From the IMG/VR virus record IMGVR_UViG_3300034062_005626: a stretch of 64,000 bases of DNA. One strand, written 5' to 3'. This stretch comes from a virus. Lineage: Duplodnaviria > Caudoviricetes. The translations under genes and the position numbers were made by a program. A model generated the notes under the pieces. That model ran no database searches and was not told the DNA's origin. It saw only the letters and a list, made by a program, of their open reading frames with translations. Of the stretch, positions 4,841 through 52,201 are shown one piece after another (the first letter of the stretch is position 1; every line of letters begins with the position of its first letter).

Positions 4841-4860
4841 AATTTATCTATTTATTGAGT

Positions 4861-9017: not shown

Positions 9018-9040
9018 CTATTTATATATAAAATAGTTTA

Positions 9041-27215: not shown

Positions 27216-27290
27216 TTTTTGTTTAACATTTTTTATAGTTTATTTTTTTTGTTTATTTTATTCAACAAATTTGTGCCACAATTAAAAGTA

Positions 27291-27335
27291 TGACAAAATG
27301 TCAGTATCGTCAACATATGTCAAGACATAATGTCA
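27291..27335. promoter_or_regulatory. candidate operator array TGACA-N3-TGTCA between divergent dnaK and clpC
   Basis: Perfect inverted repeat 27291-27303, imperfect copy 27323-27335, additional YGTCA half-sites at 27308 and 27318. Confidence 0.5.
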
Positions 27336-27394
27336 AAAATGTATTTTTTAATTGATTATTAATAAAGTTAGTTATACTTTTTAAAAAAAACAAT

Positions 27395-30152: not shown

Positions 30153-31214
30153 ATGGACCTACAAAAATTTAAAGAACTCCTTTCAGTACCATCGAAAACA
30201 TATCAAGAAGAAGATATGGTAGAATATATTTGTGATGAGTTGGAAAAAATTCATGGAGTTACGTTTTATCGTGATAATATGATGAACATATACGCAACAA
30301 AGGGTACATTAGAAGAAGGTGAATTTTATCCCATGTTTATTGCTCACACTGATACGGTTCACAACAAAATAGATAAGATTGTTGTTAAAGAAGAAAAATT
30401 AAAACGACCATACACTTTTGGTAAAAATTTTCACGATAATCTTGTTGACGTATTGAAAGCTTACGATGTTAATGATTTACCGACAGGCATTGGGGGTGAT
30501 GACAAATGTGGTATTTTTATTTGTTTAGAATTACTTAAACAATTAGACAAAGTAAAAATTGGTTTATTTGTAAGTGAAGAAACGGGTTGTCACGGTTCAT
30601 CAAAATGTGATGAAACTTTTTTGCAAGATGTAGGTTATATCACACAATACGATGCACCTGGCAACCATTTAATTACCGAGATTTGCTCGGGAGTTCGTTT
30701 ATTTGAACGGGATAGTGAATTTTTTACAAAAACATCAAAAGTTATTACCGAATCTTTTGGAAATGAAATGTTAGTTCAATCACATCCTTATACTGATATT
30801 TCACAGTTAAAGAAAAAAATTGATGTGTCTTGCATCAACATGTCTTGCGGTTATTACAATATGCATTCACCACAAGAGTTTATTTCAATTGAAGATGTAA
30901 AATGTGCAATTGAAGCTGGAAAAAACATGGTTAAAGAATTGGGGTTAAAAAAATATGAATATCAATATAAACCGATAGTTTATACACCTACAACCGTTAT
31001 GAACTCATTTGTTGAAGAATTTGATGATGATTTAGATATTTTTGAAGTACAAGAAATAGAAAGTCATCATCGTTTACAAACTATTGATGTATATGAGGAA
31101 AAAGATGGAATCACACTAACTGATGTTTACGATGATGGTTTTATGTTTATTCCTGATGAGGATTTGGCAAATTTATATGAAATTATTAGAGAAAGATTAA
31201 TTAAAAAATATTAA
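30153..31214 (+). CDS. M28/M20/M42-clan zinc peptidase
   Basis: AHTDTVH, GGDDKCG, EETGCHGS, GYYNMHS metal-ligand motifs. Confidence 0.85.
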   Translation: MDLQKFKELLSVPSKTYQEEDMVEYICDELEKIHGVTFYRDNMMNIYATKGTLEEGEFYPMFIAHTDTVHNKIDKIVVKEEKLKRPYTFGKNFHDNLVDVLKAYDVNDLPTGIGGDDKCGIFICLELLKQLDKVKIGLFVSEETGCHGSSKCDETFLQDVGYITQYDAPGNHLITEICSGVRLFERDSEFFTKTSKVITESFGNEMLVQSHPYTDISQLKKKIDVSCINMSCGYYNMHSPQEFISIEDVKCAIEAGKNMVKELGLKKYEYQYKPIVYTPTTVMNSFVEEFDDDLDIFEVQEIESHHRLQTIDVYEEKDGITLTDVYDDGFMFIPDEDLANLYEIIRERLIKKY

Positions 31215-32356
31215 TCAACATAAGGTATTAAGGGTTCGGTATTCAACATATTTAAAATATATTTTAATGGTGCCGAACCTTTTTTGAGTGGATTCCACGA
31301 ACTTCTTTTACGTATACCATAATTAACCATCAAACTATCTTTATCAACATTTAATATTCTTATTTCGTAGTCTCCTGGTATTTGTTTAAATGTGTTAAAT
31401 CCAATTTTATCATTTATAATATTAATTATTTGAAAGTATTTTTTCATTTTTTCTTCTCCACCCTCTTCAATCATACTTTCCAATTCTTCTTCTAATCCTT
31501 CCAAAACTCTTACACTTCTTTTATTAAATTCACTATAAAAAACATCAGCATCCCAAGCCTCATATTGAACTTCATAATATTCAGGAACGTGTGTTCTAAC
31601 TTCTTTTTCTATCGCCTTAAATAATATATCCATCAAACAATCGTCAGGTGTTCCATATCTTACAAATAACATAATCGCATCTCCCCAATTTAAAAAATAC
31701 TTCCAATAACAATTACTTGATTGGTTTTCGATTCCAACAACAGATAAACAATTACAATATATATCATCAATATATTTAGGTACTGCCGCGTCTGTTGCCA
31801 TTTCACTCGCATATGAATACGATTCAATTAAATCATCTTTTGTTCTATTACTTACAGATTCAATAAAGTCTGATATTTTATCTGACTCTTTATTTTTTTT
31901 CCATTCGATTTGGTCATTAACCACTTCAAATTCTTTTAATAAGTTTGGTTGATATATTTTTAATATGTTATATAAAACTTTTAATGATTCACCCTTTAAT
32001 CCGTCTAACACATATCCTTCATCCCAATCATCATTTGCTCTATCCCAATAATCCCATTCCCATGAACCTCTACGCATAGAATCTAAGTATCCCGCTTCAT
32101 ACCAACCGTCACTACCTTCTTCACCATAAGTTTCTTTGAAAAAAAATCTTAGATAGTCTTCTAATCCTTCATGGAAAGTAAAAGTTATACCATCATAACC
32201 TACTTCATAAAAGTCTGAATAATCTTCACCATCGCACCCATCAAAATCAGTATCATATGGGTCAATCTTTCTTTTGTTAAGAGCAAGAATTTTTTGATAG
32301 TCAGTTAATTCAACATCGTCATCCTCTTCTTCAAAAATTTTTGAAAATTTATTCAT
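31211..32356 (-). CDS. acidic hypothetical late protein
   Basis: 381-aa ORF; short leader MNKFSKIFE; palindromic late motif upstream. Confidence 0.75.
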   Translation of the reverse strand: MNKFSKIFEEEDDDVELTDYQKILALNKRKIDPYDTDFDGCDGEDYSDFYEVGYDGITFTFHEGLEDYLRFFFKETYGEEGSDGWYEAGYLDSMRRGSWEWDYWDRANDDWDEGYVLDGLKGESLKVLYNILKIYQPNLLKEFEVVNDQIEWKKNKESDKISDFIESVSNRTKDDLIESYSYASEMATDAAVPKYIDDIYCNCLSVVGIENQSSNCYWKYFLNWGDAIMLFVRYGTPDDCLMDILFKAIEKEVRTHVPEYYEVQYEAWDADVFYSEFNKRSVRVLEGLEEELESMIEEGGEEKMKKYFQIINIINDKIGFNTFKQIPGDYEIRILNVDKDSLMVNYGIRKRSSWNPLKKGSAPLKYILNMLNTEPLIPYVD

Positions 32357-35294: not shown

Positions 35295-36236
35295 CTATAT
35301 AAGTTCCATAATTTTTCTATATACCTGTAATACGTTTGGATGACATTCAAAAGTTTTTTTATTTTCTAAACAATTCACTAAAGATGGTATACCTTGTATT
35401 GAACCCCACTCTTTTACCCCATGTTTCATGTCTGATGCGCACATCAAATCACAGCCCCCACTAATGTAATTATATTTGTAATTTTGACTACCATTTCTAT
35501 ATGGGGCTCTAAATTCAGGATTAATTGAACTACCTAATTGAATAATTTCACAATCTGTGGTTCCTGCTAAGTGTAATAAACCTGAATCCATTGTAACAAA
35601 ACATGAACTATAATTTATTAAATGCCATGTTTCGTCAATTGAAGTTTTATTCATTAAATTAATTCCTTTTTCTATTTCAAAGTCAAACACAGGTTTATCA
35701 ACATTTGAACCTCCAATTTCTGACGAGTTTTTTCCTATTGATACAACAAAAATTCCTTGTTCATTTAAAAGTTTTGTCAAGATTTTCCAATTATCAATCG
35801 ACCAAGTTCTTGAGTTCCAATTTTGAACAGGGTGAATTAAAACATATTTTCTTGGAAAATTTTTCATTATTGAAACTTTGTTTGGAATAAAATCCAACTT
35901 CATTTCTTCTTTTGTCAACATAAACCCCAAAGAAATTGCATGAATTTGTCTAATGTCCATTACATTATGTTTATTACAAACCCCATTTGGTTTGTAAAAA
36001 ACATCAAAAGAATTAAAAATTTCATATTCATTTTTTTCTTCATCAGTTATTGGGTTAAATAATTCACTATAAACTTTATCCACATATGGATTATTTAAAA
36101 ACAAATATGGGTGATGTGTAATCACCGAAATTTTTTGACCATAAGAATTATATAATTTTCTAATTGTAGGTGTTGAACATAATGTATCGCCTAAAGCTCT
36201 ACTTTCAGTTAAATCTAAACAAATTTTTTTCATCAA
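35295..36236 (-). CDS. GT9-family (heptosyltransferase-like) glycosyltransferase
   Basis: LGDTLCSTPTIRKL, LFLNNPYVDKV, SRTWSIDNW, DSGLLHLAG. Confidence 0.85.
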   Translation of the reverse strand: MMKKICLDLTESRALGDTLCSTPTIRKLYNSYGQKISVITHHPYLFLNNPYVDKVYSELFNPITDEEKNEYEIFNSFDVFYKPNGVCNKHNVMDIRQIHAISLGFMLTKEEMKLDFIPNKVSIMKNFPRKYVLIHPVQNWNSRTWSIDNWKILTKLLNEQGIFVVSIGKNSSEIGGSNVDKPVFDFEIEKGINLMNKTSIDETWHLINYSSCFVTMDSGLLHLAGTTDCEIIQLGSSINPEFRAPYRNGSQNYKYNYISGGCDLMCASDMKHGVKEWGSIQGIPSLVNCLENKKTFECHPNVLQVYRKIMELI

Positions 36237-36287
36237 TTAAAATATAGGATACTTCACAAATAATATGAATAAATTATTTTTTTAATT

Positions 36288-39197
36288 ATGAAATTAAAAT
36301 TAATGTATGTGGTTCCTCATTTATCAACAGGAGGAATGCCACAATTCGTATTAAAAAGAATTGAATCTTTATTGGAATATAAAAATGAAATTGAAGTTTT
36401 TCTTGTAGAATACTCACAATTTAGCGACACATATATTGTTCAAAGAAATAAGATAATAGAATTACTGGATGTTGGTCATTTTTTTTCATTAGGTTGGTTT
36501 ACAGAGCCTGAAAAAAAATATCAACTAATTGATATTATAAAAGAAAACAAGATTGATATTGTCCATATTGAAGAAATACCTGAAGGGTTTGAAAGTTTCA
36601 ATAAAATTCCTTTGGATATACTTAATCAACTTTATGATAATAATAGAACGTGGAAAATTGTTGAAAGTTGTCACAATATTTGGTTTGATGGTAATTCAAA
36701 TAAAAAGTTACATCCTGACTATTACTCTTTTGTTACTCCATACCATTTAAGCTCACAGTTTAATAAACTTAATACTCCAAAAAAAGTTTGGGAATACCCC
36801 ATAGAAAATAAAGTAAGTGATATATTAAAAGAGTATTCAATTTATGACAAATCACATAGAGTTCCAACATTAAAAAAAATAATTGAGAGGGAAAACTTAC
36901 AAATTTCTATGACAAAAACACACATTTTAAATGTGGGTCTTTGGACTGAAGGTAAAAATCAAAAAGAAGGTATTGAAGTCGCAAGATTACTTGAAAATAC
37001 ACACCCTGATTTACATTTTCATTTTATTGGAAATCAAGCATCAAATTTTGAAAACTATTGGGGTCCAATTATGAATAACTTACCAAAAAATGTTACAGTA
37101 TGGGGGGAAAGAGAAGATGTTGATACATTTATGAAAGCCTGTGATGTTTTGATGTTTAATTCAACTTGGGAATGTAACCCTTTGGTGGTTAGAGAGGCTA
37201 TTAACTATGGAATGAAGATAATGACAAGAAATCTTCCTCAATATATGGGAATGTTTGATGAATATATAACACCAATTAAATCAAACAACTACGAAGACAT
37301 CAAAAATACCTTACTTGAATTATTAAATTCAAATAAGACTTATGAAATAAATACAAAAAGAGATTTCAAAAAAGAATTATTAGATTTTTATAAAGAAGTT
37401 AATAACGTTTCAAAAACTTTAAACAATCCAATAACAAAAACATATAAGGTAAATAATCATTTTGTTGTTAATCCATTTATTGAAATATCGGGCGAAGAAG
37501 AAACGAACTTTGAAATAACTTTTATTGATGAAGGTGGAAATGTAATTTATCAAAATAATATACCCATAAATTCTTGGGTAAAATTGAATAGGGAATATTA
37601 CACAAAATGGACAATTAGAGTTAAAGAAGATAATAGTGTAATTTTTTCTAACATTTTAAATTTAGAAAATAGAAGAGTTTACATTTCTTTTGGTTCAAAA
37701 TCCCTTGGAGATTCTTTGGCTTGGATTCCGTACTGCGAAGAATTTAGAAAAAAACATAATTGCGAATTAATTGTGTCAACATTTTTAAATGATTTATTCA
37801 AAGACCAATACCCAAATATTGAATTTGTTGAGCCAGGTGAAACTGTATATGATATATATGCTCAATACCAACTTGGTTGGTTTTATAATGAAAATGGTGA
37901 ATTTGATTCAAATAAACATCCCTTTGATTTTAAAAAACAACCACTACAAAAAACGGCAACAGATATTTTAGGTTTAGATTATGTTGAAATTAGACCTGAA
38001 TTAAAATTGCCAAACATTACAAAAAAGAAAAAAGTGGGCATTGGGTTTCATTCAACAGCACAAGCAAAATATTGGAATAACCCTGATGGTTGGCAGGTGG
38101 TTATAGATTATTTAGATTCATTAGGTTATGAATGTATGATATACTCAAAAGAGGGTAATGGTTATATGAATAATTTTTATCCAAAAGGGGTTACGATTTA
38201 TAAAGGTGGAAACCTTCAAGAAGTAATTGATGATTTATCCGCCTGTGAGTTTTTTGTAGGTTTAGGTTCAGGATTATCTTGGTTGGCGTGGGCATGTAAA
38301 ATACCCGTAGTTTTGGTTTCAGGATTTAGTGAAAAATGGGCTGAGACAACCTTAGACACATATAGAGTTATAAATGAAAATGTATGTCATGGATGTTTTA
38401 ATAATGATAGATTAAATGCTGGAGATTGGAATTGGTGTCCGTTACATAAAGGAACTAACAGACAATTTGAATGTACAAAAGAAATAAGTTCTGATATGGT
38501 CATAAAAGAAATAAATAAAATAATTAACAAAGAAATGATAGAAGATAAACAATTTGATTGGGGTAAAAAAAGTGAATGGTATGTAAGTCAAGCAACAAAA
38601 GAAATTTTTGAAGATGATGCTTATGAAAGATTTTTTGAAGTTGAAGAGGGGGATATAGTTGTCGATTTGGGGGCATCGATTGGTCCTTTTACCTATAAAA
38701 TTTTACCTAAAAACCCAAAACAATGTTATGTTGTTGAACCTTTATCTTATCATATAAATGTTTTACATAAAAACGTAGGAGAAGATAATGTTAAAATTAT
38801 TCAAGGAGCAATTACGGATAAAAAGAATATAGAAATAACATGGGACGGTATAACAGAAAGTGTTCCTACATTTTCATTCAGAGAATTTTTAAATGAAAAT
38901 AAAATAAATAAAATAGATTTTTTAAAGTGTGATTGTGAAGGTGGTGAGTATGATGTATTTCAACCGTCCAATATAGATTTTTTAAAAACAATACCAAAAA
39001 TTGTAACAGAATTTCATTTAGTAAATGATGAAAACTTCCACGAATGTAAGTTTAGATGGTTCAGAGATAATATACTACCAAAATTTGAAAATTATAAAGT
39101 GTATTCTTACGATGGTGTTGATATAAAATGGGATTTATGGAATGACCATTTTATTGAATATTATAATGAAGTTATTATCTATATAGATAATAGATAA
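36288..39197 (+). CDS. tri-domain enzyme: GT4 + autotransporter O-heptosyltransferase (Aah/TibC-like) + FkbM methyltransferase
   Basis: VPHLSTGGMP and WECNPLVVRE (GT4); SKSLGDSLAWIPYCEEFRKKH, GLGSGLSWLAW and CHGC..WCP..EC (BAHT); DLGASIG, DFLKCDCEGGE (FkbM). Confidence 0.85.
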   Translation: MKLKLMYVVPHLSTGGMPQFVLKRIESLLEYKNEIEVFLVEYSQFSDTYIVQRNKIIELLDVGHFFSLGWFTEPEKKYQLIDIIKENKIDIVHIEEIPEGFESFNKIPLDILNQLYDNNRTWKIVESCHNIWFDGNSNKKLHPDYYSFVTPYHLSSQFNKLNTPKKVWEYPIENKVSDILKEYSIYDKSHRVPTLKKIIERENLQISMTKTHILNVGLWTEGKNQKEGIEVARLLENTHPDLHFHFIGNQASNFENYWGPIMNNLPKNVTVWGEREDVDTFMKACDVLMFNSTWECNPLVVREAINYGMKIMTRNLPQYMGMFDEYITPIKSNNYEDIKNTLLELLNSNKTYEINTKRDFKKELLDFYKEVNNVSKTLNNPITKTYKVNNHFVVNPFIEISGEEETNFEITFIDEGGNVIYQNNIPINSWVKLNREYYTKWTIRVKEDNSVIFSNILNLENRRVYISFGSKSLGDSLAWIPYCEEFRKKHNCELIVSTFLNDLFKDQYPNIEFVEPGETVYDIYAQYQLGWFYNENGEFDSNKHPFDFKKQPLQKTATDILGLDYVEIRPELKLPNITKKKKVGIGFHSTAQAKYWNNPDGWQVVIDYLDSLGYECMIYSKEGNGYMNNFYPKGVTIYKGGNLQEVIDDLSACEFFVGLGSGLSWLAWACKIPVVLVSGFSEKWAETTLDTYRVINENVCHGCFNNDRLNAGDWNWCPLHKGTNRQFECTKEISSDMVIKEINKIINKEMIEDKQFDWGKKSEWYVSQATKEIFEDDAYERFFEVEEGDIVVDLGASIGPFTYKILPKNPKQCYVVEPLSYHINVLHKNVGEDNVKIIQGAITDKKNIEITWDGITESVPTFSFREFLNENKINKIDFLKCDCEGGEYDVFQPSNIDFLKTIPKIVTEFHLVNDENFHECKFRWFRDNILPKFENYKVYSYDGVDIKWDLWNDHFIEYYNEVIIYIDNR

Positions 39198-39791
39198 TTA
39201 ACCACAAGGACCGATGGGTTCCCATGACCAAACTCTTCCATCCATATACCACCTATATATCATTGTCCCATCAACATAAAATCCTTCAGGGGCATAATTA
39301 CCACCACATCCACCATAAGGGTATAGTAAATTATTTGTAGAATCGAAACTATAAAACGATGCACTTCCATTACATGCAACGTCAAGGAACTTCCCATAGG
39401 AAAGGGACTTGTCATCACAAGTAGGGGTCGGTGTACAACTACCAAAAAATGACCAAGTCCATCCCATAGTAGTCTCTTGCCAATTATATATATTACCAAA
39501 AGTATCAACATAAAATCCCTCTGGCGCATAATTTAATACGTCGTCACAATAACCAAACTGAAACAATTGTTGAGTTGTCATATTAAAACTATAAAGACCT
39601 GACGATTCAGAACAAGCAATTCCGGGTATTGGCCCAAACTGATAACTTAAATCAACACACGATGTTGGGTCACTTCCAGGCCATCCGGGTATTTCTCTTG
39701 TATCTATTCCTCCTATATATTTTATACTTGAGGATGTAATTCCACCTATTTTAGTAATTAATTCAACATTTACGCCTGATACTGTTCCCAT
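39198..39791 (-). CDS. fibre-associated protein with two tandem Cys/aromatic repeats
   Basis: Two about 60-aa units each with NYAPEGFYVD and W-x-W..G-x-C. Confidence 0.65.
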   Translation of the reverse strand: MGTVSGVNVELITKIGGITSSSIKYIGGIDTREIPGWPGSDPTSCVDLSYQFGPIPGIACSESSGLYSFNMTTQQLFQFGYCDDVLNYAPEGFYVDTFGNIYNWQETTMGWTWSFFGSCTPTPTCDDKSLSYGKFLDVACNGSASFYSFDSTNNLLYPYGGCGGNYAPEGFYVDGTMIYRWYMDGRVWSWEPIGPCG

Positions 39792-39795
39792 GTTA

Positions 39796-42700
39796 TTATA
39801 TTTCTACCCAAGTATTATCAGGATTGAAATAAATTGTTTCAGTAGTCCCATCTAAACTATACCCTATGATTCTTATTATATCACCAGTTCCTGAAGGTGC
39901 TGTTGTTGTTATACCACCCGTGCTTGTTGAAACGTATAAAATATCTCCCGTGGTTGTAGAAAATCCTGCATCTCCTGAATTTCTAATATACCCTCTTATT
40001 AACATACCTTTTGACGGTTGCGTATCCAGTGCGAAGGCTAATAATCCTGTTGCTCCTGATGCTGCGTTCGCGTCAGTTGCAACCCAAGCTCCTGAACTAT
40101 TATAATAGTATAAATTACCTGCGGTTGTTGAACCCGTTCCAAAGGTTACTATGTCACCATATCCACTTACGGAAGTTGTTAATTCTGTTGTTGGGTCATG
40201 ATAAAATGAATAATCGCCATTAACATGTAATCTTCTTACGGGTACAATTGTACCGATTCCAACATTGTCAGTTGATGCATCAGCATAAAATAATCCATCT
40301 GTACCTCCTCCTTTAATTTGAAAATGAGATACGGCATTTTGAGTATTATTAAATATTGAAGTTCCCTCGTCTGTAAAAATTGCGTAATTAGTAGTTGCTC
40401 CCGCCGAACTAACTCTAACACCATAATTTTCTAAAGCATCATTTGATACAGAAACATTTAAACCGTATTTAACACTTGTGCTTGGTGATGCAGTACCATT
40501 AACAATAAAACTACCACCCGTTTGAGTATCAGAACCTAATGAATTTGTATTACTATTTGAAACTTTTATACCATTACTGTCACCGGTAGTACCATTAATT
40601 CTTGCTGAAAACGCATCGTTTGATATTGTTCCACCAAATACAGTGACATCATGACCTACAGTAGTATAACAATTACCAAAAACATTAAAAATAGTTCCAG
40701 TTTTACCCCCCACCCCATTTCCGTGGTCCCCAAATACGCTCCCCTCAATACCTAGTTGGTATGACGAATCTTTTAATGAATGATTTGTAATTCTAATACC
40801 TACATTTTCTCCATATATAGTACCATTACCTACTGTGACAACGGACCCGACATTTTCAACCGTTGCATCATATACTAAAATATCATGACCTGTTAAACCA
40901 GAAACAATAGCTTGCCCTTGACCTGTAACTTTTGAAACAGAATATCCAAAACTTTGACTGGTTTGTGTCGATGTAACATGTAATCCAAAAGTGTCGTTTC
41001 CTATTGAATCTAAAATAAATTGATGTCCCTGAACCGCCAATCTTTGAGTTCCTCCGTTGAATATTAAATTATTATCTGAAACTATACCTCCCGCACCATC
41101 TGAGCGTAAAACTTGGTATGTTGACCCACTAACACTTGGCGATGTTCCACTACTTCCTGACGTTCCATTTGTACCACTGGTGCCGTTAGTTCCTGAAGTT
41201 CCATTTGCCCCTGAACTACCTGATGTACCATTTGTTCCTGATGAGCCCGAAGTACCGTTAGTACCTGATGTTCCATTCGTTCCACTTGTTCCATTTGTTC
41301 CCGAACTACCTGATGTTCCGTTAGTTCCGTCTGTACCTGATGTTCCATTAGTACCACTTGAACCCGAGGTTCCATTAGTACCTGATGTACCGTTTGTACC
41401 GCTACTACCGCTTGTTCCGTTGGTTCCACTTGTACCATTAGTTCCACTCGTGCCGTTTGTGCCTGATGTTCCGTTTGTGCCGCTCGAACCTGAAGTGCCG
41501 TTAGTACCTGAGCTTCCACTAGTACCGTTAGTGCCAGATGTTCCGTTAGTACCACTACTTCCTGAAGTTCCATTTGTTCCTGACGTTCCATTTGTTCCCG
41601 ATGTTCCGGCAGCCGTTAATAAATTTGTCCCAACACCCGCAGCACAGGCTGTTATGTCTATAAAGGCACCTCTTGCAGAGCCCCCTTGTTCAAAAAATCT
41701 AACTCTATTTTGCCACACGTCAAAAGTAACTCCAGTACCTGATATTGACGTGTTTGTTGCAGGTTTGTTTAATAATATTTCTCCACCTTCATCACCAGCT
41801 TGATACAATACACTTAATTTTGTACCGTCAAAAGTTAAAAGAGATTCCGCAACTATTGCTCCCGAACCGTTTGAAGTTAATATTTGGTCATTTGACCCTG
41901 GTACTGTTGGTGATGTCCCGCTACTTCCTGATGTACCGTTTGTTCCTGAACTTCCACTCGTTCCGTTTGTCCCGCTCGTTCCATTTGTACCTGAGCTTCC
42001 ACTAGTGCCGTTAGTTCCTGACGAACCACTAGTTCCACTACTACCTGATGTTCCATTTGTACCCGAACTTCCACTAGTACCATTCGTCCCGCTAGTTCCA
42101 TTTGTACCTGAAGTTCCGTTAGTTCCTGATGTGCCATTCGTACCAGATGAACCACTAGTTCCGTTTGTACCACTACTACCGCTAGTTCCGTTAGTACCAC
42201 TAGTTCCGTTAGTACCACTCGAACCTGAAGTCCCATCTGTACCTGAACTACCGCTGGTACCGTTTGTTCCGTTAGTTCCCGATGTCCCATTTGTACCTGA
42301 GGTTCCGTTTGTGCCATTCGTTCCCGATGTACCATTTGTTCCTGACGTTCCATTCGTTCCCGATGTACCATTTGTTCCTGACGTTCCATTTGTTCCCGAT
42401 GTTCCATTTGTTCCGTTTGTACCTGATGTTCCATTCGTTCCTGAGGTTCCATTTGTTCCACTAGTACCGTTTGTTCCATTCGTTCCTGAGGTTCCATTCG
42501 TTCCGCTAGTACCGTTTGTTCCATTCGTTCCGCTAGTACCATTAGTTCCTGAAGTTCCATTGGTTCCGTTAGTGCCTGATGTACCATTCGTACCAGATGA
42601 ACCACTAGTTCCGTTTGTACCACTACTACCACTACTACCACTTGTGCCATTTGTACCGCTAGTTCCGTTTGTCCCTGATGTTCCATCCGTACCTGAACTA

Positions 42701-44805
42701 CCTGAAGTTCCGTTTGTCCCTGAAGACCCCGATGTGCCATTAGTACCATTTGTACCGCTAGTCCCATTTGTTCCTGAAGTTCCGTTGGTCCCACTACTTC
42801 CACTCGTACCATTTGTACCACTTGAACCCGAAGTTCCATTCGTACCGCTAGTACCATTAGTTCCACTCGAACCTGATGTCCCTGAAGAACCACTACTTCC
42901 ATTTGTTCCGTTTGTTCCTGAAGAGCCGCTAGTCCCATTTGTACCACTACTACCACTTGTACCATTTGTACCTGAAGAGCCGTTGGTTCCGTTAGTGCCG
43001 CTACTACCACTGGTCCCATTTGTACCCGATGTACCATTTGTTCCACTACTTCCTGACGTACCATTCGTACCACTAGTTCCATTTGTTCCCGAACTACCTG
43101 AAGTTCCGTTAGTGCCACTTGTTCCAGAAGACCCTGCAGGTCCTGGAGCACCCGCTAAATTAATGTCCCAAGTGGCATACGTACCCGTTCCTGTATTATT
43201 GGTACTTGAGATTACAAATGCCCCCGTAGATGAATTATAGGATGATATTGTACCTTCAAATCTATTGGATAAATTGTGAGCAACAATTACTGTTTGACCC
43301 ACAGTATATGAAAGTCCAGTACCTCCCGTTAAATTAACTGTCGTTGGGTGTACAGTTGGAATAGCTATTGATGTAGTGGATGTTGTTGAATAAATATCCC
43401 CGTCTTGACCGCTAGTGCCGTCAGTTCCTGAAGTACCACTACTTCCTGAAGTCCCGTTTGTTCCTGAACTACCTGAAGTTCCATTTGTCCCGTTTGTTCC
43501 CGAAGTACCATTCGTTCCGGATGAACCCGAAGTGCCGTTAGTACCACTTGTACCATTAGTTCCACTTGTTCCGTTAGTTCCTGATGTTCCATTAGTTCCA
43601 CTTGTACCATTAGTTCCACTTGTACCATTAGTACCGTTGGTTCCACTAGTCCCATTCGTTCCTGAAGTTCCGTTTGTGCCTGAGGAACCACTAGTACCAT
43701 TTGTTCCATTTGTCCCTGAAGACCCTGATGTTCCGTTAGTACCACTTGAACCGTTTGTCCCTGAAGAACCACTAGTTCCATTTGTACCACTAGAACCTGA
43801 AGAGCCGTCCGTTCCACTTGAACCCGAGGTTCCATTAGTGCCTGAAGACCCACTTGTTCCACTTGAACCTGAAGAACCGTTTGTTCCATTAGTACCGCTT
43901 GAACCCGATGTTCCATTTGTGCCCGATGTTCCATTTGTTCCCGATGTTCCATTTGTGCCCGATGTTCCATTAGTACCCGATGTTCCGTTAGTTCCGCTTG
44001 AACCCGATGTTCCGTTAGTACCCGATGTTCCGTTAGTTCCGCTTGAACCAGATGTCCCATTAGTACCTGAAGAACCACTAGTTCCATTAGTACCTGACGT
44101 TCCATTAGTTCCGCTACTACCACTTGAACCATCCGTACCATCGACTCCCGATATTCCACTTGTACCGTTTGTTCCTGATGTCCCACTACTACCTGAAGTG
44201 CCAGAACCTCCACCCGTAGTAAACCCTGTCACACTCACAGTTTGACCATCAGTTCTTGTTAGTTGTAAAGTTGTTGTTCCTGAATTATAGGTTCCACCTG
44301 TAACATATATGTCGGTAAATCCTGTTAAAAATCCATTAACATTAAAAGTCCCTCCTGTATTGTTTGTAAATGTTGCAACACCATTATTTGGATTATATGT
44401 TCCTCCTGTTACAAATATTTCTGGAGGTAATCCTAAATATGTTGACGCAGATATTGTAAATGCACTTAAAGATTGTGTGAATAATGTATTTCCACTCACA
44501 GTTCCACCACTTAATGGTAGATATTCACCTGTGGCTGAACCACTATTAAAAATACTCCAATCAGTTATAGTATTTGACCATGGAGCGACATTTAACTTAT
44601 AATAAGTTGTACCACCACTCACACCAACTACCATCCCCGCTCTTCTTCTTAAAGTTGGTATAGCGTTTAAATCACTTATAGTATTGACGTTTCTTAAACC
44701 ATCAATACCATAAATTGGGTCAATTACCGGATATACATCACTAGTGTCGCTTGGGGATATAAACCCAAAAACTTCAACACCACCTGATAGACTAAATGAA
44801 CTCAT
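39796..44805 (-). CDS. giant collagen-like (Gly-X-Y) fibre protein, 1669 aa
   Basis: N-terminal IPTLRRRAGMVV motif common in phage fibres; three Gly-X-Y tracts of GTN/GTS/GSS; beta-rich C-terminus. Confidence 0.8.
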   Translation of the reverse strand: MSSFSLSGGVEVFGFISPSDTSDVYPVIDPIYGIDGLRNVNTISDLNAIPTLRRRAGMVVGVSGGTTYYKLNVAPWSNTITDWSIFNSGSATGEYLPLSGGTVSGNTLFTQSLSAFTISASTYLGLPPEIFVTGGTYNPNNGVATFTNNTGGTFNVNGFLTGFTDIYVTGGTYNSGTTTLQLTRTDGQTVSVTGFTTGGGSGTSGSSGTSGTNGTSGISGVDGTDGSSGSSGTNGTSGTNGTSGSSGTNGTSGSSGTNGTSGTNGTSGSSGTNGTSGTNGTSGTNGTSGTNGTSGTNGTSGSSGTNGTNGSSGSSGTSGSSGTNGTSGSSGTDGSSGSSGTNGTSGSSGTNGSSGTNGTSGSSGTNGTNGTSGSSGTNGTSGTNGTSGTNGTNGTSGTNGTSGTNGTSGTNGTSGTNGTSGTNGTSGSSGTNGTSGTNGTNGTSGSSGTNGTSGSSGTSGTDGTSGQDGDIYSTTSTTSIAIPTVHPTTVNLTGGTGLSYTVGQTVIVAHNLSNRFEGTISSYNSSTGAFVISSTNNTGTGTYATWDINLAGAPGPAGSSGTSGTNGTSGSSGTNGTSGTNGTSGSSGTNGTSGTNGTSGSSGTNGTNGSSGTNGTSGSSGTNGTSGSSGTNGTNGSSGSSGTSGSSGTNGTSGTNGTSGSSGTNGTSGSSGTNGTSGTNGTSGTNGTNGTSGSSGTNGTSGSSGTDGTSGTNGTSGTNGTSGSSGSSGTNGTSGSSGTNGTSGTNGTNGTSGTNGTSGTNGTNGTSGTNGTSGTNGTNGTSGTNGTSGTNGTSGTNGTNGTSGTNGTSGTNGTSGTNGTSGTNGTSGTNGTNGTSGTNGTSGTNGTNGTSGSSGTDGTSGSSGTNGTSGTNGTSGSSGTNGTSGSSGTNGTSGTNGTSGTNGTSGTNGTSGSSGTNGTSGSSGTSGSSGTNGTSGSSGTNGTSGTNGTSGSSGTNGTSGSSGTSPTVPGSNDQILTSNGSGAIVAESLLTFDGTKLSVLYQAGDEGGEILLNKPATNTSISGTGVTFDVWQNRVRFFEQGGSARGAFIDITACAAGVGTNLLTAAGTSGTNGTSGTNGTSGSSGTNGTSGTNGTSGSSGTNGTSGSSGTNGTSGTNGTSGTNGTSGTNGTSGSSGTNGTSGTNGTSGSSGTNGTSGTDGTNGTSGSSGTNGTSGTNGTSGTNGTSGSSGTNGTSGSSGANGTSGTNGTSGTNGTSGSSGTSPSVSGSTYQVLRSDGAGGIVSDNNLIFNGGTQRLAVQGHQFILDSIGNDTFGLHVTSTQTSQSFGYSVSKVTGQGQAIVSGLTGHDILVYDATVENVGSVVTVGNGTIYGENVGIRITNHSLKDSSYQLGIEGSVFGDHGNGVGGKTGTIFNVFGNCYTTVGHDVTVFGGTISNDAFSARINGTTGDSNGIKVSNSNTNSLGSDTQTGGSFIVNGTASPSTSVKYGLNVSVSNDALENYGVRVSSAGATTNYAIFTDEGTSIFNNTQNAVSHFQIKGGGTDGLFYADASTDNVGIGTIVPVRRLHVNGDYSFYHDPTTELTTSVSGYGDIVTFGTGSTTAGNLYYYNSSGAWVATDANAASGATGLLAFALDTQPSKGMLIRGYIRNSGDAGFSTTTGDILYVSTSTGGITTTAPSGTGDIIRIIGYSLDGTTETIYFNPDNTWVEI
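41140..41607 (-). repeat. Gly-X-Y tract 3 (GTN/GTS/GSS)
   Basis: Gly at every third residue; 9-bp periodicity with varied wobble bases. Confidence 0.9.
41911..43153 (-). repeat. Gly-X-Y tract 2 (GTN/GTS/GSS)
   Basis: About 410 residues, uninterrupted triplets beginning GAPGPAGSS. Confidence 0.9.
43399..44205 (-). repeat. Gly-X-Y tract 1 (GTN/GTS/GSS)
   Basis: About 270 residues of triplets. Confidence 0.9.
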
Positions 44806-44806
44806 A

Positions 44807-45577
44807 TTAACTACACATCCATATATTCAAATTACTTGCGGCTTGATAGAATGTTCTATAAATATTGTAAACCACAGGGAATCCGTTTAAATCGTTTATT
44901 GTCACTTGTCCTATGTTATTCATAGGTACTACTAATCCATCACAACCATTCGTACTTGAAACAAATCCTGACGGTTGTTGTAATGAAGTAGGAATCAATA
45001 TATAACTATATGCAGAACCAAAACCAATACTTACGTAGTTGTTAATTGCTGGTGAAAGATATATAAATGTTAAATTACTAACCACCTGACCACTCGTCAC
45101 AGTAGTACCTGTAAATTTACCATAGTAAACACCCAAAGGTAATGGTGTAGGACTTGGTGTAGGAGTCGGTGTCGGTGTAGGTGTTGGAGTAGGTGTTGGA
45201 ACAATTACAGGTATTGTTCTTGGACCACAACAAAAATCAGTATTTGATATAGATTCTGTAATATTAATATAAAGTCTTTCTTTCAATGGTATTTGAATTG
45301 ACCCTTGACTATTTGTTACAAAAAAAGACCCTTCGTATCTTCCAACATCACTTGTGTTTCTTTTTGTAAATTGATAATATATCATTTCGTTTGTAGAATC
45401 ATAAGTACAATTACCTCTTGCAACTTTATAAATACCCGTTTCTTCATTGGTCATGTAAAACAAAATGGTGGAGCCACTCAAAGAAGAATCTTTAAGATTA
45501 AAACTTGTCCTTCCATTTTTGAAAATATCAAGACCTAAAACAGGTAAGGTTGCATTTTTTCTGATAAAAAACTCCAT
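44807..45577 (-). CDS. BppU-N-like virion protein with (PT)n linker (start moved to 45577)
   Basis: FFIRKNATLP..., YQFTKRNTSDVGRYEGSF resemble BppU N-terminal domain; PTPTPTPTPTPTPSPTP linker. Confidence 0.6.
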   Translation of the reverse strand: MEFFIRKNATLPVLGLDIFKNGRTSFNLKDSSLSGSTILFYMTNEETGIYKVARGNCTYDSTNEMIYYQFTKRNTSDVGRYEGSFFVTNSQGSIQIPLKERLYINITESISNTDFCCGPRTIPVIVPTPTPTPTPTPTPTPSPTPLPLGVYYGKFTGTTVTSGQVVSNLTFIYLSPAINNYVSIGFGSAYSYILIPTSLQQPSGFVSSTNGCDGLVVPMNNIGQVTINDLNGFPVVYNIYRTFYQAASNLNIWMCS

Positions 45578-45601
45578 ATTGATAAATAGTCCATACAAGA
45601 A

Positions 45602-45730: not shown

Positions 45731-48700
45731 TTAAAAGAATGTATTCATTACATTTAAGAATGAATCCTGAACAATTAAACTATCGTATCCTAGTTCAATC
45801 ATTTTATTTTTTTCTGTCTGTAATTCTCTTATAAATTTTATATCTGAAATATTATTTTGACTTATTAAAGATTCAATAATAAAATCAAATCTTTTTTCAA
45901 CTAATCTTTTTTCAACTAACATACTTGATTTCATTTCTTTTTGTTCTTTGATAATATTTTTAATTCTATTGTCTAAATTTGTTGTTCTACTATAAATATT
46001 TTCATTTTCATTAACTTGCAAAGTTATTTCCATAAATTCTATTGATGGTGAAACATTTGTTAATTGTTTTATGTAATCCAAACTTTTTCTAGATAATTTA
46101 TTTCTAAGTGTGGTATGACAACCAACAATTTTTTGTTTGTCTTTTTTTAATTGTGTTTTATCTATTGAGTCAGCAGAAATAGTTTTTCTATATAATGACA
46201 CATAAGTTTGATAATATTGTTCAATTATATTTTCACAACTTTTTAAATCAGAAAGTTTTTTTGGTTCTTTTTCAGGTCCAATTTTTGTTAATTCAAACTC
46301 AAAATTATTATTTTCCTTATTTGAAACTAATTTCAATCTTTCTGTTTTTAATTCATACCCATCTTTTTCAAGGGTAATAAAAACAATTTTATTATTTTCA
46401 GGTTCAGATTTTCTGTTTAATCCTCTTTTTATTTTTCCACCCTGAAAAGGTATTACACCCTCTATTGATTTTTTTGGGTTGTTTCTATCTTCAATGATTG
46501 CAAATTCCACACCATCGATTGTTTTATTATCTTGGTCAACAACTTTAAGTAAATTGAATTTAAAAAATGCGTCATTTTTGTCAAGTTTGATATAAAATTC
46601 ATTTTCACCTCTTTTTTTAATTTTTAATTTACCTTTTTCTGTGTCATACCCTTCATTTGATATTTCGTAATAAACTTCCGATGTTTCAAAATTTCTTGGT
46701 CTTCTGTCTAATTTAATAAAGTCCTCTACAGACCCTTTACCTGAAGTTAAAAGTTCTTTTTTACTACTATCTGAATAAACCATAATACTAGCATCAGACA
46801 AAGGCATATTATTTTCTGAGTCAGACGCAAGTATTGAGTATTGAAATTGTGTATTGATTGATACTTCAAAAATATTTGACGAAGACATGTCGTAAGAATC
46901 TGTTTTTATTCTACTTACTATTTTTTTTTCTTTTTTTCCATTGAATACACAAAGTTCAAATTCTTTTGGGGTTCCCTTTTTACCTTTAAAACTTGCAACA
47001 ATCTGAACTTTTGTTTTTTCTTCACAAGGTAAATCTTTATTTTTTTTAAATTTATCGTTATAAGGTATTACAAAATTTGATAATTTTCCATTATTGTCGG
47101 TTTTACTTCTTGCTATTATTTCATTGCCAATTAAAAAAGATACGTCAGCGTTAGAAATATTTTCACCATCTTCATCTAAAACTGTTACATCAACAACACA
47201 CACCTGTTCAGTTTTAACTATTCTTTTTGTTGCGACCTCCTTTTTATCTAAAGATTTAAACTTATAATTTTTTTGAATTTTTGTGTTTGAAGTTATTTCT
47301 AAATTTTCTGTTTCCGTTGAACCGTAGTCCATGTGAAAAAATTTTAATTTATACGAACCAATAGGTACGTTTAGAATTTCATAGTTCCCTTCACCATCAG
47401 AAATAGCCCCATAACTTTTACCTGCGGTTGATAATGTTACTTTTGCACCTGATAGAGGATTATCGGTTGAGTCTGTAATTTTACCAAAAACTGTTGCAGA
47501 ATTGTCATCCTCATTTAGATAATATTTTTCAAAATATTCCTTCATAAATAATTTTTTATCAGATAGAATTATAGTTACTTCTTTATCTTGATTGTCCATT
47601 TTGAAATTATAATTTTTCAATGATGAAAATTTATTATTGGTGTCAACTGTCAACAAATAATCACCTAATTCTATATTTTCAAATTCAAAATTTCCTTCGT
47701 AGTCAGATTCTGTTTTATAAGTTATATTTTTAATTGTTTTGTGTTGTAAAGTTATTTTAGCCGTTGTTGGTTTTAATTTATTAGCAATAGTAAGAGTTGA
47801 TAGTGTTTCATTATCAACAATATCTTTTAAACCATCAACAACTTTTGAATCTTTATTTTTTGATAATGTTGCTTTCACAAAACCTGTTAATGTTCCTGAT
47901 TTTAAAATTCCTTTGGTTCTATTTTGATTTGTCAAATCAGAATACACGTCAGTTACTCTTGGTCGTTCTGAGTTGTACTTTACCAAATCTTCTATTGTGT
48001 CAGTTTTTGTTTTTACTTTGTAAGTAGATTTTAACGAATCTTTTGAAATGGTTTCAAATTCACCATCGTAAACCGAACCATTTGCAAAAGTCATTTTTCC
48101 AATACCATCTATTTTTCCATCATAAAATTCTCCTTCATACACATCGCCATTTTCAAATGTAATTTTTCCTTCACCTTCAGGTTTTCCATTATCGAATGAA
48201 CCTTCGTATGTAAATGTGTCGTCATGAAAATTTGGTCTAAATGGTGATACGTAAATTTTACCAGCGGATTCCGATGAAATGTTATGTAATTTACCTTTAC
48301 CTTGGGGTTTACCATTTTCTACCTCACCTTCATAGTACCCTTCATCATTATCTATGATTGTTTTTCCTGAATCGGTTTGTGTTAATGGTTCTTCGTTGTT
48401 TGGGGTTTCAATCCATTCATTATCCTTAAAATAATAAACATAACCCGAACTATCTGTTTTTGTACCGGTAAAATGATTATCTTCATCCCATGTCCCTTCT
48501 AGAACCTCACCGTCGGGCCTAATAATTTTACCTGACAAAAAACGATTATTTTCATCAAAAATACCATCTTCAACCGCATTTGAACTTTTGTAAGTCCTTT
48601 GACCTTTATAAAGGTATTCATTTCCAAATTTATTAAGTTTAAAGTCACCTTGTTCTATACCAGAACCATTTTCTTTCTTACCTAATATAAGTTTACCATT

Positions 48701-48853
48701 TTGAAATCTACCACTCACTATTGTACCATCATCTTTGGTTAAAGTACCAACACCATTTTCGCAATCACCCACGCAAGTATCTTCTTTGAGTAATTGATAA
48801 AGACCAAGTATTTTTTTCTTTTCACTTTCAGATATGATGATTGCTTTTGACAT
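45731..48853 (-). CDS. leader-bearing multidomain protein: MORN repeats + carboxypeptidase-regulatory-like beta-sandwich repeats
   Basis: Leader MSKAIIISESEKKKILGLYQLLKE; YEGEVENGKPQGKG / YEGEFYDGKIDGIG MORN units; GKITDSTDNPLSGAKVTL..AISDGEGNYEILNVPIGSY. Confidence 0.8.
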   Translation of the reverse strand: MSKAIIISESEKKKILGLYQLLKEDTCVGDCENGVGTLTKDDGTIVSGRFQNGKLILGKKENGSGIEQGDFKLNKFGNEYLYKGQRTYKSSNAVEDGIFDENNRFLSGKIIRPDGEVLEGTWDEDNHFTGTKTDSSGYVYYFKDNEWIETPNNEEPLTQTDSGKTIIDNDEGYYEGEVENGKPQGKGKLHNISSESAGKIYVSPFRPNFHDDTFTYEGSFDNGKPEGEGKITFENGDVYEGEFYDGKIDGIGKMTFANGSVYDGEFETISKDSLKSTYKVKTKTDTIEDLVKYNSERPRVTDVYSDLTNQNRTKGILKSGTLTGFVKATLSKNKDSKVVDGLKDIVDNETLSTLTIANKLKPTTAKITLQHKTIKNITYKTESDYEGNFEFENIELGDYLLTVDTNNKFSSLKNYNFKMDNQDKEVTIILSDKKLFMKEYFEKYYLNEDDNSATVFGKITDSTDNPLSGAKVTLSTAGKSYGAISDGEGNYEILNVPIGSYKLKFFHMDYGSTETENLEITSNTKIQKNYKFKSLDKKEVATKRIVKTEQVCVVDVTVLDEDGENISNADVSFLIGNEIIARSKTDNNGKLSNFVIPYNDKFKKNKDLPCEEKTKVQIVASFKGKKGTPKEFELCVFNGKKEKKIVSRIKTDSYDMSSSNIFEVSINTQFQYSILASDSENNMPLSDASIMVYSDSSKKELLTSGKGSVEDFIKLDRRPRNFETSEVYYEISNEGYDTEKGKLKIKKRGENEFYIKLDKNDAFFKFNLLKVVDQDNKTIDGVEFAIIEDRNNPKKSIEGVIPFQGGKIKRGLNRKSEPENNKIVFITLEKDGYELKTERLKLVSNKENNNFEFELTKIGPEKEPKKLSDLKSCENIIEQYYQTYVSLYRKTISADSIDKTQLKKDKQKIVGCHTTLRNKLSRKSLDYIKQLTNVSPSIEFMEITLQVNENENIYSRTTNLDNRIKNIIKEQKEMKSSMLVEKRLVEKRFDFIIESLISQNNISDIKFIRELQTEKNKMIELGYDSLIVQDSFLNVMNTFF

Positions 48854-49747: not shown

Positions 49748-52201
49748 TTATAAATATTTGTCAGCAAAATCTTTTGCACTTATTATGGTTTTATCTTCTA
49801 TTAATGTATTATCTAAATCATTAAGTTTTTTTACAACATCTTTAGCGTCATCTTCTTTTTCAAATCCATTTATGTTTGGTATTGTTTTAGGGTTTGCTTT
49901 CTTTATATCATTCAATGTTGCAGGTTCAGGTTTTTCATCTGTTGTGGCGGCATAATAAATTTTATATAAAACTGGGTCAGAAACATTGGTAGGGGCCACT
50001 TTAGCATAAAAATAAAATGGTTCATATGGTACTTTTTGAAACGAAAATTTGTAACTTTTACCATCTTGTGTTCCTAATTCACCGATAACCCGATATAAAT
50101 ATCCATTTTTATCTCTAACCGCACCATCTGTTATTGTGACATTTTCACTTATTTTTTCTACGTTTTTAGGATTTTTAAACACTTGTTTTACTTTATCAAG
50201 GTCTATGTTTAACGCATCCTCATTAACCGCTATATCTTTGTATACGACTAAAGATTTTTTAAATTTTTCTAAATCACTTTCTTTTAAACCGTTATATTTT
50301 AAAAATAATGTTTGGTTTTGGTTTTCTTTCATTACAAAATCATATAACCTCCCAAACGATTTAAAAATTCCTTGTGGTTCAGCAAACCCTTTTAATAATG
50401 CTTTTTGCTCCTCCTGCCCCATACTGCCCCACCATTCATCAAAAGCCTCATTTTTGGACATCACTAATTCGGATTTTGTTTTATCTGGGTCTTGACTTAA
50501 ATCTCTATGTGCACCTACTAAACCAGATTTTATTAAATTATATTCCCACTCAATATCAAAAGGTAATAAATCTGAAGTGTTAAATTCAGTGTATGCCTTT
50601 ACAATTTCATCCCATAATAACTCATAACCTGTTTTTTTTGTTTCAGATGAAATTCTATCTATTTCATTCTTTTCGAAACCAATCGCGATAAGGGTGTTTA
50701 TTGTTACAGGAACAATTATTAAAACCTTTTTAAAAACTATTAATTTTATATATTGCCATAAAAGATTTTGAAGAAATTTTTTCCATGAACCAAACCCTTT
50801 AGTCCCAAACATTTTACCTAATGTTTTAAAAGTCCTTATCTGACCAAAGAAAACTTCCATCCAAAAATTTCTCCAAGAAAACTCAAATGTTTTTATATAT
50901 TCTTTAATATTTTTAAATAACCCACTAATCCCATCTTTAAAGACACTTTTAACAAAATTTTTAAACTTTGTGAAATCTTCCATAAAAGAGCTAATTTGCT
51001 CTGCATTTTTAAGAACGCTCTCAGGGGTATTTGGGTATCTTGTTTTTAAATCTTGAAAATATTGTTTAAAAGATTCAGGTTTCCATTTTGGCATGATGTT
51101 GGAACCAGGTTCTCCATATATTAATGAATCTTCAATTGCTTTAACTAATTCCGTTTCACCTTCTTTTCTTAACTCAGCTAAAACTTCATCCCATATTTGT
51201 CTGGCATTTTTTTCAATACCATCAATTTGGTCAATATCGTATGCTATTGCCCTAACTAAAGATTGAAATTCTGTGGTTGGTGTTGTTGAGTTTTCTATTA
51301 CAATTTTTTCAGCTGGAAATGATTTTAATAAATTTAAGTTTTCGTCTAAAGACGCTTTTAACTCATCAAAAGTTTTTCCAATATTTTTAAATTTTTTAAT
51401 TAGGTTATTTAAAAATCTCCACTTACCACTAACTTTTTTTATATCCTCAATATTGGTTACAGGTTTTTCATCGTAAGTCAATCCCTTCTCTTTTTGCCAC
51501 CCATCAAGGTCAGTTTCTATTTTTTTGTCTAACCAGGTTTCTAAACGGTCAAAATTTTTATCACCTGATTTGAATGGTATTCCTTTCGCTTTCAACTCAT
51601 CTTCAAAATACCCTTTATAAAATTCTTTTAATTCTTTTTTATTTGGTTTTTTTGCACCCCCAAGATATTCATCGTCAATAAGTTTTTCCATTTCAAAATA
51701 TGAATCACTATAAGCCTGATACACTTTACCATCAGGGTTGTCAAAAACTTTATTTAACGCACTATCAACAGAATTTATAAACATTTGATTATTGTCTATA
51801 GAAGCCCCTCCTTTTGCATTTTGTACTTTTATTTTAAAATCATTAAATTTTTTATAAAAACTACTAGGGTTTGTACTTAAAGACCCCAATTTATCGGCTC
51901 TAGCAGCATTTGCAATCTCTGTTTTTTGATTTTTTAAACCTTGAGCCATATCATCTATTTCTTGAGCAGTTAATTTAACTACCTTAGACCCTTTCGGTAT
52001 TAAGTCATTCAATCCATTTAATAATTTTTTTACATCATCAACCGATTCAAATGCCTCATCCGCATGAATTAAAAGTTTTCCTAATTGTGTGATTGGAGGA
52101 CCTCCCTCATTTAAAATATGACTATTTGTGGGAAAATTTTCTTCTTTTAACCCCATTAAGGATTTTGCCCTATTAATTTCTAATATTAAATTATTATTCA
52201 T
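49748..52201 (-). CDS. large leader-bearing helical protein with hydrophobic segment (possible ejection protein)
   Basis: Leader MNNNLILEINRAKSLMGLKE...ILNE|G; hydrophobic VLIIVPVTINTLIAIGF. Confidence 0.65.
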   Translation of the reverse strand: MNNNLILEINRAKSLMGLKEENFPTNSHILNEGGPPITQLGKLLIHADEAFESVDDVKKLLNGLNDLIPKGSKVVKLTAQEIDDMAQGLKNQKTEIANAARADKLGSLSTNPSSFYKKFNDFKIKVQNAKGGASIDNNQMFINSVDSALNKVFDNPDGKVYQAYSDSYFEMEKLIDDEYLGGAKKPNKKELKEFYKGYFEDELKAKGIPFKSGDKNFDRLETWLDKKIETDLDGWQKEKGLTYDEKPVTNIEDIKKVSGKWRFLNNLIKKFKNIGKTFDELKASLDENLNLLKSFPAEKIVIENSTTPTTEFQSLVRAIAYDIDQIDGIEKNARQIWDEVLAELRKEGETELVKAIEDSLIYGEPGSNIMPKWKPESFKQYFQDLKTRYPNTPESVLKNAEQISSFMEDFTKFKNFVKSVFKDGISGLFKNIKEYIKTFEFSWRNFWMEVFFGQIRTFKTLGKMFGTKGFGSWKKFLQNLLWQYIKLIVFKKVLIIVPVTINTLIAIGFEKNEIDRISSETKKTGYELLWDEIVKAYTEFNTSDLLPFDIEWEYNLIKSGLVGAHRDLSQDPDKTKSELVMSKNEAFDEWWGSMGQEEQKALLKGFAEPQGIFKSFGRLYDFVMKENQNQTLFLKYNGLKESDLEKFKKSLVVYKDIAVNEDALNIDLDKVKQVFKNPKNVEKISENVTITDGAVRDKNGYLYRVIGELGTQDGKSYKFSFQKVPYEPFYFYAKVAPTNVSDPVLYKIYYAATTDEKPEPATLNDIKKANPKTIPNINGFEKEDDAKDVVKKLNDLDNTLIEDKTIISAKDFADKYL

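Follow-up and report, generated by a model that had tools for sequence, protein, structure and literature searches.

A 64,000-nucleotide stretch of phage DNA (IMG/VR record IMGVR_UViG_3300034062_005626; the whole of this stretch is called the window below) carries at positions 35295-44805 two glycosyltransferase genes next to the gene for a collagen-like fibre. The enzymes are a stand-alone protein of 313 residues with a GT9 fold (P0001, 35295-36236, minus strand) and a 969-residue fusion of GT4, TibC/Aah and FkbM domains (P0002, 36288-39197, plus strand); the fibre protein (P0004, 39796-44805, minus strand) has 1669 residues. Our analysis makes it reasonably probable that this locus is a phage-encoded cytoplasmic module for virion glycosylation, which attaches, extends and methylates a glycan on the phage's own collagen-like fibre. 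In the proposed scheme, the TibC/Aah-type domain would take the first sugar directly from a nucleotide sugar and attach it to hydroxyl groups of Ser/Thr in the fibre, most likely within its Gly-Thr/Ser-Ser/Asn triplets. Extension of the glycan would then fall to the fused GT4 domain and to the TibC-like GT9 enzyme encoded next door, and the fused FkbM domain would cap the glycan by O-methylation. We infer that the fibre is the acceptor and that the steps follow this order; the sugar attached and the role of the glycan (shielding, adhesion or helix stabilization) are inferred likewise. TibC and Aah work in the cytoplasm on soluble nucleotide sugars (PMC4358343), a mechanism that fits a fibre target because phage fibres are made in the cytoplasm. 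The initial annotation, made from the sequence without database searches, had listed the GT9 gene, the fusion with its four-cysteine motif and the fibre, and all three are present at the positions it gave.

Profiles of Pfam and NCBIfam divide P0002 into three parts. Residues ~1-400 (36288-37487) form a GT4 domain (GT-B, Glycos_transf_1) matched over residues 199-353 by PF00534 (58 bits) and PF13692 (36 bits), while residues ~753-969 (38544-39197) correspond to an FkbM S-adenosylmethionine-dependent methyltransferase (PF05050, 46.1 bits with a cut-off of 22.7; TIGR01444, 55.5 bits with a cut-off of 37.7; phrog_8156). Between them, residues 406-745 (37503-38522) align with positions 27-374 of the 374 in TIGR04414, the TibC/Aah (BAHT) equivalog profile, and score 295.1 bits against a cut-off of 200. 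The match to TibC itself (PDB 4RAP) has an E-value of 7.6e-64 at ~45% identity and spans almost the full length of the enzyme, with most of the N-terminal barrel region covered. By sequence, then, the middle domain is a genuine TibC/Aah-family protein O-glycosyltransferase. The initial annotation had already called it TibC/Aah-like, correctly, but its description of the domain as divergent does not agree with a match of this strength.

The residues that matter for catalysis were mapped in an alignment of 130 sequences, two of them enterobacterial enzymes adjoining AIDA-I genes and the other 128 belonging to the phage clade; the roles of individual TibC residues were taken from the structure paper (PMC4358343). 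The catalytic base D475 (Asp110 of TibC), the beta-phosphate contacts T590 and K594 (Thr226 and Lys230), the sugar-contacting W665 (Trp305) and the four cysteines of the CHGC..WCP..FEC motif (C700, C703, C717 and C729, equivalent to the iron-finger residues Cys339, 342, 358 and 370) are invariant in all 130. Among the ring-contact residues, the thumb tip F265/V266 is conservatively replaced by Tyr/Met, and Phe368 is kept. Since the catalytic, phosphate-contact, Trp and Cys residues are all invariant, inverting transfer from a nucleotide sugar to a hydroxyl is very likely to be conserved.

The donor pocket is a different matter. In TibC, Arg286 contacts N1 of adenine, the stated basis of ADP-sugar specificity, and Pro300 determines stereoselectivity at C6 of the heptose (PMC4358343). 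The first position is occupied by V646 in P0002 and by Val (94), Leu (30), Ile (3) or Thr (1) in the 128 phage-clade sequences, Arg being confined to the two enterobacterial references; the second is G660 here and Gly in 128 of 128. As both residues are replaced throughout the phage clade, an ADP-heptose donor should not be assumed, and heptose is a possible sugar rather than an expected one. P0002 departs from the TibC/Aah family in two features: the adenine contact is not the Arg286 of TibC, and the neighbouring gene does not encode an autotransporter substrate. The initial annotation had read the locus as building an extended and methylated glycan on the fibre, with heptose or a different sugar as donor: its enzyme family, the modular company of GT4, FkbM and GT9 activities and the co-occurrence with fibres (see below) stand, and heptose is no more than a possibility.

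Genes for donor synthesis give no clearer indication of the sugar. No GmhA or RfaE-like gene was found in the window by tblastn with the relatives' proteins. Among the enzyme-bearing relatives, GmhA-like genes are confined to two sub-lineages, where they score ~180-190 bits, slightly below the cut-off, and five other near-complete genomes with the enzyme have none; Gmd is present in three of five near-complete ones. Neither GmhA nor Gmd tracks the enzyme. The two related lineages with a GmhA-like sedoheptulose-7-phosphate isomerase are represented by L085 (genome G005, 4214-9662) and L084 (genome G004, 6687-7286). In G005, the gene clusters with those for a NeuB-like synthase, a phosphatase, a short-chain dehydrogenase/reductase and an aminotransferase, an arrangement that points to heptose or nonulosonic-type sugars made by the phage.

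The second enzyme, P0001, probably starts at the ATG one codon in from the annotated start and matches PF01075 with 57.3 bits (cut-off 22). Its AlphaFold2 (AF2) model (pLDDT 79, pTM 0.82) finds TibC (4RAP/4RB4, TMq up to 0.67) as the best match in the PDB, followed by WaaF and WaaC. A C-terminal cluster of four cysteines (C262, C266, C289 and C298) and Asp17 of an LGD motif are invariant in 23 homologues. Judging from the model, P0001 looks like a second TibC-like enzyme that lacks the N-terminal beta-barrel. We also considered a lipopolysaccharide (LPS) heptosyltransferase and rejected it as a specific assignment, since P0001 scores far below every LPS heptosyltransferase equivalog cut-off. 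The score is far below the TIGR04414 cut-off as well, so that the protein can be classified only as a member of the GT9 superfamily.

Relatives of the TibC-like domain are abundant, with more than 5,000 homologues in the protein database and representatives on 273 IMG/VR contigs. Module composition and gene neighbourhoods were counted in the best 80 loci. The GT4-TibC-FkbM fusion is the common form among them. At more distant loci, GT4 and FkbM are encoded by separate genes adjoining the TibC-like gene, the GT4 gene lying immediately upstream. In most close relatives, and at 48 of these 80 loci overall, a P0001 homologue is encoded beside the fusion. On this comparative evidence, the predicted GT4, TibC-like, FkbM and P0001-type GT9 activities constitute a conserved module.

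The proposed acceptor, P0004, matches Pfam Collagen (PF01391) with 375 bits (E-value 9.4e-115) as well as PHROG tail-fibre families. Its collagen-like runs occupy residues 199-471, 552-965 and 1067-1222 (43393-44211, 41911-43152 and 41140-41607, respectively) and amount to 281 uninterrupted Gly-X-Y triplets, or 843 residues, dominated by GTN (107), GTS (104) and GSS (56). The triplets contain 435 Ser/Thr residues and only two Pro; Thr sits at the X position, with Ser or Asn at Y. P0004 thus has the long Gly-X-Y repeats of the collagen-like family at the sequence level, the triple helix being a prediction. The repeats are followed by a C-terminal domain of 380 residues (39799-40938), 41-60% identical in the relatives' fibres, for which AF2 yields a low-confidence (pLDDT 57) all-beta model of repeated hairpins. 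We also observed that every GTN triplet precedes G-T or G-S, which creates ~108 Asn-Gly-Ser/Thr sequons within residues 199-1222. This sequon is the motif of N-glycosylation systems, including the cytoplasmic HMW1C-type ones; no GT41-type enzyme was seen at the locus.

Evidence linking the enzyme to such fibres comes from their joint occurrence, which the initial annotation had proposed as a check and which gave a strong positive result in either direction, also across phage lineages that are unrelated. In the forward direction, the 80 loci were collapsed into 35 clusters at 90% enzyme identity, 30 of which could be evaluated, and an open reading frame (ORF) with at least 20 triplets was regarded as collagen-like. 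Such an ORF lies within 5 kb of the enzyme in 26 of the 30 clusters and within 10 kb in 28, and Thr/Ser dominates its X position in 27 of these 28. The placement of the fibre gene varies: it is convergent and downstream in most clusters and co-directional and upstream in others, with different spacing and intervening genes. In four near-complete genomes (220-373 kb), the collagen matches listed fall in one to three ORFs, the main one no more than ~6 kb from the enzyme. The pairing extends beyond this clade, to a 735-kb phage (LR756501), in which a GTS/GSS ORF of 40 triplets lies 3.6 kb from the enzyme, and to a cultured Microcystis phage, Mel-JY01 (locus L081, PP395634). The latter encodes a GT4-TibC-type fusion of 1226 residues, annotated only as "methyltransferase FkbM", and a frame with 202 triplets, mostly GTS/GSS, that ends 1.7 kb upstream of the fusion gene. 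In the Mel-JY01 record, these 202 triplets are covered by a plus-strand open frame of 1016 codons (1-3052) that runs off the start of the record, over which GenBank places three short genes for hypothetical proteins, two running in the opposite direction. The repeat frame is probably a mis-called collagen-like fibre gene.

For the reverse direction, we took 46 viral records picked solely by a Thr/Ser-triplet DNA pattern and 42 controls picked by a Gly-Pro-X pattern. The enzyme was found on 15 of the 46 Thr/Ser-triplet records, at 36-51% identity, versus 1 of the 42 Pro-type controls (Fisher p = 1.9e-4, odds ratio ~20; 5.9 versus 0.63 hits per Mb). Three of the four Thr/Ser-triplet records that are at least 90% complete carry it. 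In 9 of the 15 enzyme-positive records, the fibre lies within ~5 kb of the enzyme.

Several observations weigh against the proposal that the module serves the fibre. Related phages among the records of the reverse test share ancestry and the control set was not clade-matched, while many of the linked loci belong to related aquatic phages, so the counts do not represent independent events. Genome G006 (175 kb, 85% complete) has the enzyme and no collagen-like gene. None lies within 10 kb of the enzyme in the L078 cluster, in the 630-kb phage of locus L087 or in the 183-kb phage of locus L088. Conversely, the enzyme is absent from two of the six Thr/Ser-collagen records with a completeness of at least 80%. 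In addition, TibC and Aah recognize a folded strand-loop-strand motif of a beta-helix, not a collagen-like chain, so that the C-terminal domain or another protein could be the acceptor. The pairing of enzyme and fibre is therefore strong, yet not obligatory, and this makes it less plausible that the helix cannot do without the sugar. That a sugar might stabilize the triple helix at all is purely speculative. In the cuticle collagen of Riftia, the glycosylated Thr is at the Y position; in P0004, Thr is at X.

The same mismatch of substrate motifs leads to the alternative that fares best, in which a virion protein is glycosylated but not on the triplets. The acceptor might then be the beta-rich C-terminal domain of the fibre, the (Pro-Thr)n protein encoded at 44807-45598, or a capsid or tail protein. 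The preference of TibC/Aah for strand-loop-strand structures in beta-helices (PMC4358343), which is also reflected in the family name, would suit the conserved C-terminal 380 residues with their tentatively predicted beta-hairpins; the protein with the (PT)8 linker is encoded by the gene next to that of the fibre; and the L087 enzyme, which has no collagen-like gene nearby, lies near a gp23-like capsid fragment. Nevertheless, it is the Thr/Ser triplet region that unrelated lineages have in common beside the enzyme, whereas the C-terminal domains differ in Mel-JY01 and LR756501, and P0125 (the (Pro-Thr)n protein) and P0003, which flank the fibre gene in the window, are not conserved as neighbours across loci. 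We regard a non-triplet acceptor as rather unlikely.

It is less likely still that the enzymes modify host proteins or the host envelope (adhesins, cargo of the type IX secretion system (T9SS), LPS or capsule), for example to block superinfection, and that their adjacency to the fibre is merely inherited gene order. Many examples are known of phages modifying the surface of the host with glycosyltransferases, as reviewed in PMC12619734; GT9 enzymes classically act on the LPS core; and synteny by descent inflates our counts, as many of the linked loci are related. On the other hand, the linkage persists when the gene order changes and is seen again in a cyanophage and in the 735-kb phage, and the enzyme is ~20-fold enriched (as an odds ratio) on Thr/Ser-collagen contigs compared with controls. 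Moreover, the middle domain of P0002 passes the equivalog cut-off for protein O-glycosyltransferases and not that for LPS heptosyltransferases, and no flippase, ligase or membrane component was seen at the locus. A non-protein acceptor, with a methylated glycan built on DNA bases, a small molecule or a lipid, is hard to credit: phage GT-B enzymes that hypermodify DNA exist (cited in PMC12619734) and the donor pocket differs from that of TibC at two positions, but the domain retains ~45% full-length identity with TibC together with the catalytic base, the acceptor-side iron-finger cysteines and conservative thumb residues, no DNA-modification genes are adjacent, and the genomic link is to fibre genes.

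If the fibre is indeed the target, a broader reading may be offered, which we hold only tentatively. A widespread clade of aquatic phages, represented by hundreds of contigs and several host phyla, may have re-targeted a TibC-type iron-finger glycosyltransferase from beta-helical autotransporters to Pro-free Gly-Thr/Ser-X fibres. It would use a donor other than ADP-heptose and combine the steps in one assembly-line polypeptide, the product being a methyl-capped O-glycan coat needed for folding or function of the fibre.

Comparison with known systems shows what is shared and what is new. With TibC/Aah, P0002 shares homology over the whole enzyme (with the catalytic Asp, Thr/Lys, Trp, Fe(Cys)4-finger cysteines and Phe368 kept), a cytoplasmic chemistry that would need no lipid carrier, and a gene position next to a long repetitive Ser/Thr-rich surface fibre, just as aah adjoins aidA, the gene for AIDA-I, in E. 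coli plasmids. Unlike these proteobacterial enzymes, P0002 is phage-encoded and fused to GT4 and FkbM domains, its neighbour is a collagen-like Gly-X-Y fibre whereas TibA and AIDA-I, the substrates of TibC and Aah, are beta-helical autotransporters, and its donor may differ, with Arg286 and Pro300 replaced. An analogue in organization is A064R of chlorovirus PBCV-1, a three-domain protein with two rhamnosyltransferases and a methyltransferase that builds capsid glycans. In both cases, a single viral polypeptide would combine two sugar transferases with a sugar methyltransferase, act in the cytoplasm on a virion protein and do without host machinery. The domain families are unrelated, however, and the acceptor of A064R is an N-linked capsid glycan of a eukaryotic virus; A064R has no initiating protein glycosyltransferase. 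Virion glycosylation has been shown for mycobacteriophages, reportedly in work by Freeman and colleagues from 2023 (cited in PMC12619734). There, too, phage glycosyltransferases adjoin structural genes and modify virion proteins, with a proposed shielding role, but the enzymes are of other families, the acceptors are the C-termini of capsid and tail-tube subunits and the hosts are Actinobacteria. Glycosylated collagen-like proteins are also known. Bacillus BclA carries rhamnose-anthrose oligosaccharides on GPT repeats, the gene for C. difficile BclA3 is adjacent to sgtA, and the Mimivirus collagens are served by L230. Together with Riftia collagen, these are Thr-rich Gly-X-Y repeats that are O-glycosylated, sometimes with methylated sugars and with the transferases encoded nearby. 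None of them is known to use a TibC-type enzyme. Thr is at Y in BclA and Riftia and at X in P0004, while hydroxylysine is what is modified in Mimivirus.

Two small genes flank that of the fibre. P0003 (39198-39791, minus strand), directly downstream, encodes a Cys-rich protein of 197 residues with two similar halves, each having an ...APEGFYVD... motif and conserved Cys and Trp. No family match was found for it in Pfam, PHROGs or NCBIfam. It falls in a virus-only Atlas cluster of 94 members, and among the best 80 loci homologues occur at L001 and L030 only. From its position, we would guess that it is a fibre tip or an assembly factor. P0125 (44807-45598, minus strand), directly upstream of the fibre gene, encodes 263 residues with a (Pro-Thr)8 linker and has a weak match to a PHROG of unknown function; it is a possible second acceptor. 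The initial annotation had mentioned this (PT)n-linker protein, whose gene lies just beyond 44805, the end of the region it described.

The window comes from a tailed jumbo phage. It encodes a T4-type major head protein, a portal, a large terminase and a prohead protease, as well as DnaK/Hsp70, ClpB, UvrC and a pyrimidine-dimer glycosylase, and its G+C content is mostly ~26-35%. No match was obtained by megablast against GenBank phages, and the nearest record (G001) is without the fusion enzyme. Moraphages, large aquatic phages of Flavobacteriia, carry DnaK and several uncharacterized core glycosyltransferases (PMC12619734), and the gene content of the window fits this group. The host is probably an aquatic Flavobacteriia-type bacterium, as indicated by that paper and by a phage-encoded protein with CHU_C and SprB features. 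Bacteroides, which the initial annotation had assumed, is the less likely host on the same grounds. The protein in question (818 residues, 56471-58927, minus strand) carries at its C-terminus a CHU_C sorting domain for type IX secretion, in addition to SprB repeats and a PKD-like domain, and is apparently addressed to the T9SS of the host, a clue to Bacteroidota.

Other genes of the window deserve brief mention. A full-length DnaK/Hsp70 (866 bits) and a ClpB-type disaggregase with a double AAA+ module are encoded side by side and divergently at 25359-29437. Two large minus-strand genes probably code for virion or tail-associated proteins, one of 1040 residues with MORN repeats, CarboxypepD_reg and Ig-like domains (45731-48853) and one of 805 residues with a peptidoglycan-binding domain (52238-54655). 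At the left edge, the C-terminal part of the GDP-L-fucose synthase Fcl (3-566, plus strand; NF047922, E-value 2.3e-42; PF01370) is cut by the end of the window. This agrees with the GDP-fucose synthase named there in the initial annotation. It is followed by a GT2 gene (3285-4097) and may be the tail of a larger glycan cluster of the phage. Inspection by eye revealed a TATTTAT-like motif that recurs 5-30 nt upstream of the start codons of many late or structural genes, for example those at 45731-48853, 49748-52201, 56471-58927 and 31211-32356. Positions 32954 and 34746 are instead preceded by a Bacteroidota-type TATCTTTG element, and a GC-rich hairpin with a T-run after it is present just upstream of 45598. 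The two enzyme genes diverge from a 51-nt region in which neither the TATTTAT-like motif nor TAnnTTTG was seen by eye.

Our literature searches found no paper linking TibC-type enzymes to phages or collagen-like fibres. To our knowledge, TibC-type enzymes have been described only as modifiers of virulence adhesins in Proteobacteria, and we know of no case of virion glycosylation in phages of Gram-negative or cyanobacterial hosts, although no systematic search for one was made. In automatic annotation, such genes receive the label "autotransporter O-heptosyltransferase" or "FkbM methyltransferase", and at least one GenBank record probably contains a mis-called repeat ORF. An abundant, conserved attach-extend-methylate module tied to Thr/Ser fibres constitutes a concrete, testable system, and one of its carriers, Mel-JY01, is in culture. 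It raises questions about the coating of phage fibres, about what stabilizes a collagen-like helix with hardly any Pro and about how a glycosyltransferase is re-targeted in its acceptor and donor specificity. If the re-targeting outlined above is true, glycosylated collagens would gain a new class, and phages of Gram-negative or cyanobacterial hosts their first virion glycosylation system of this type.

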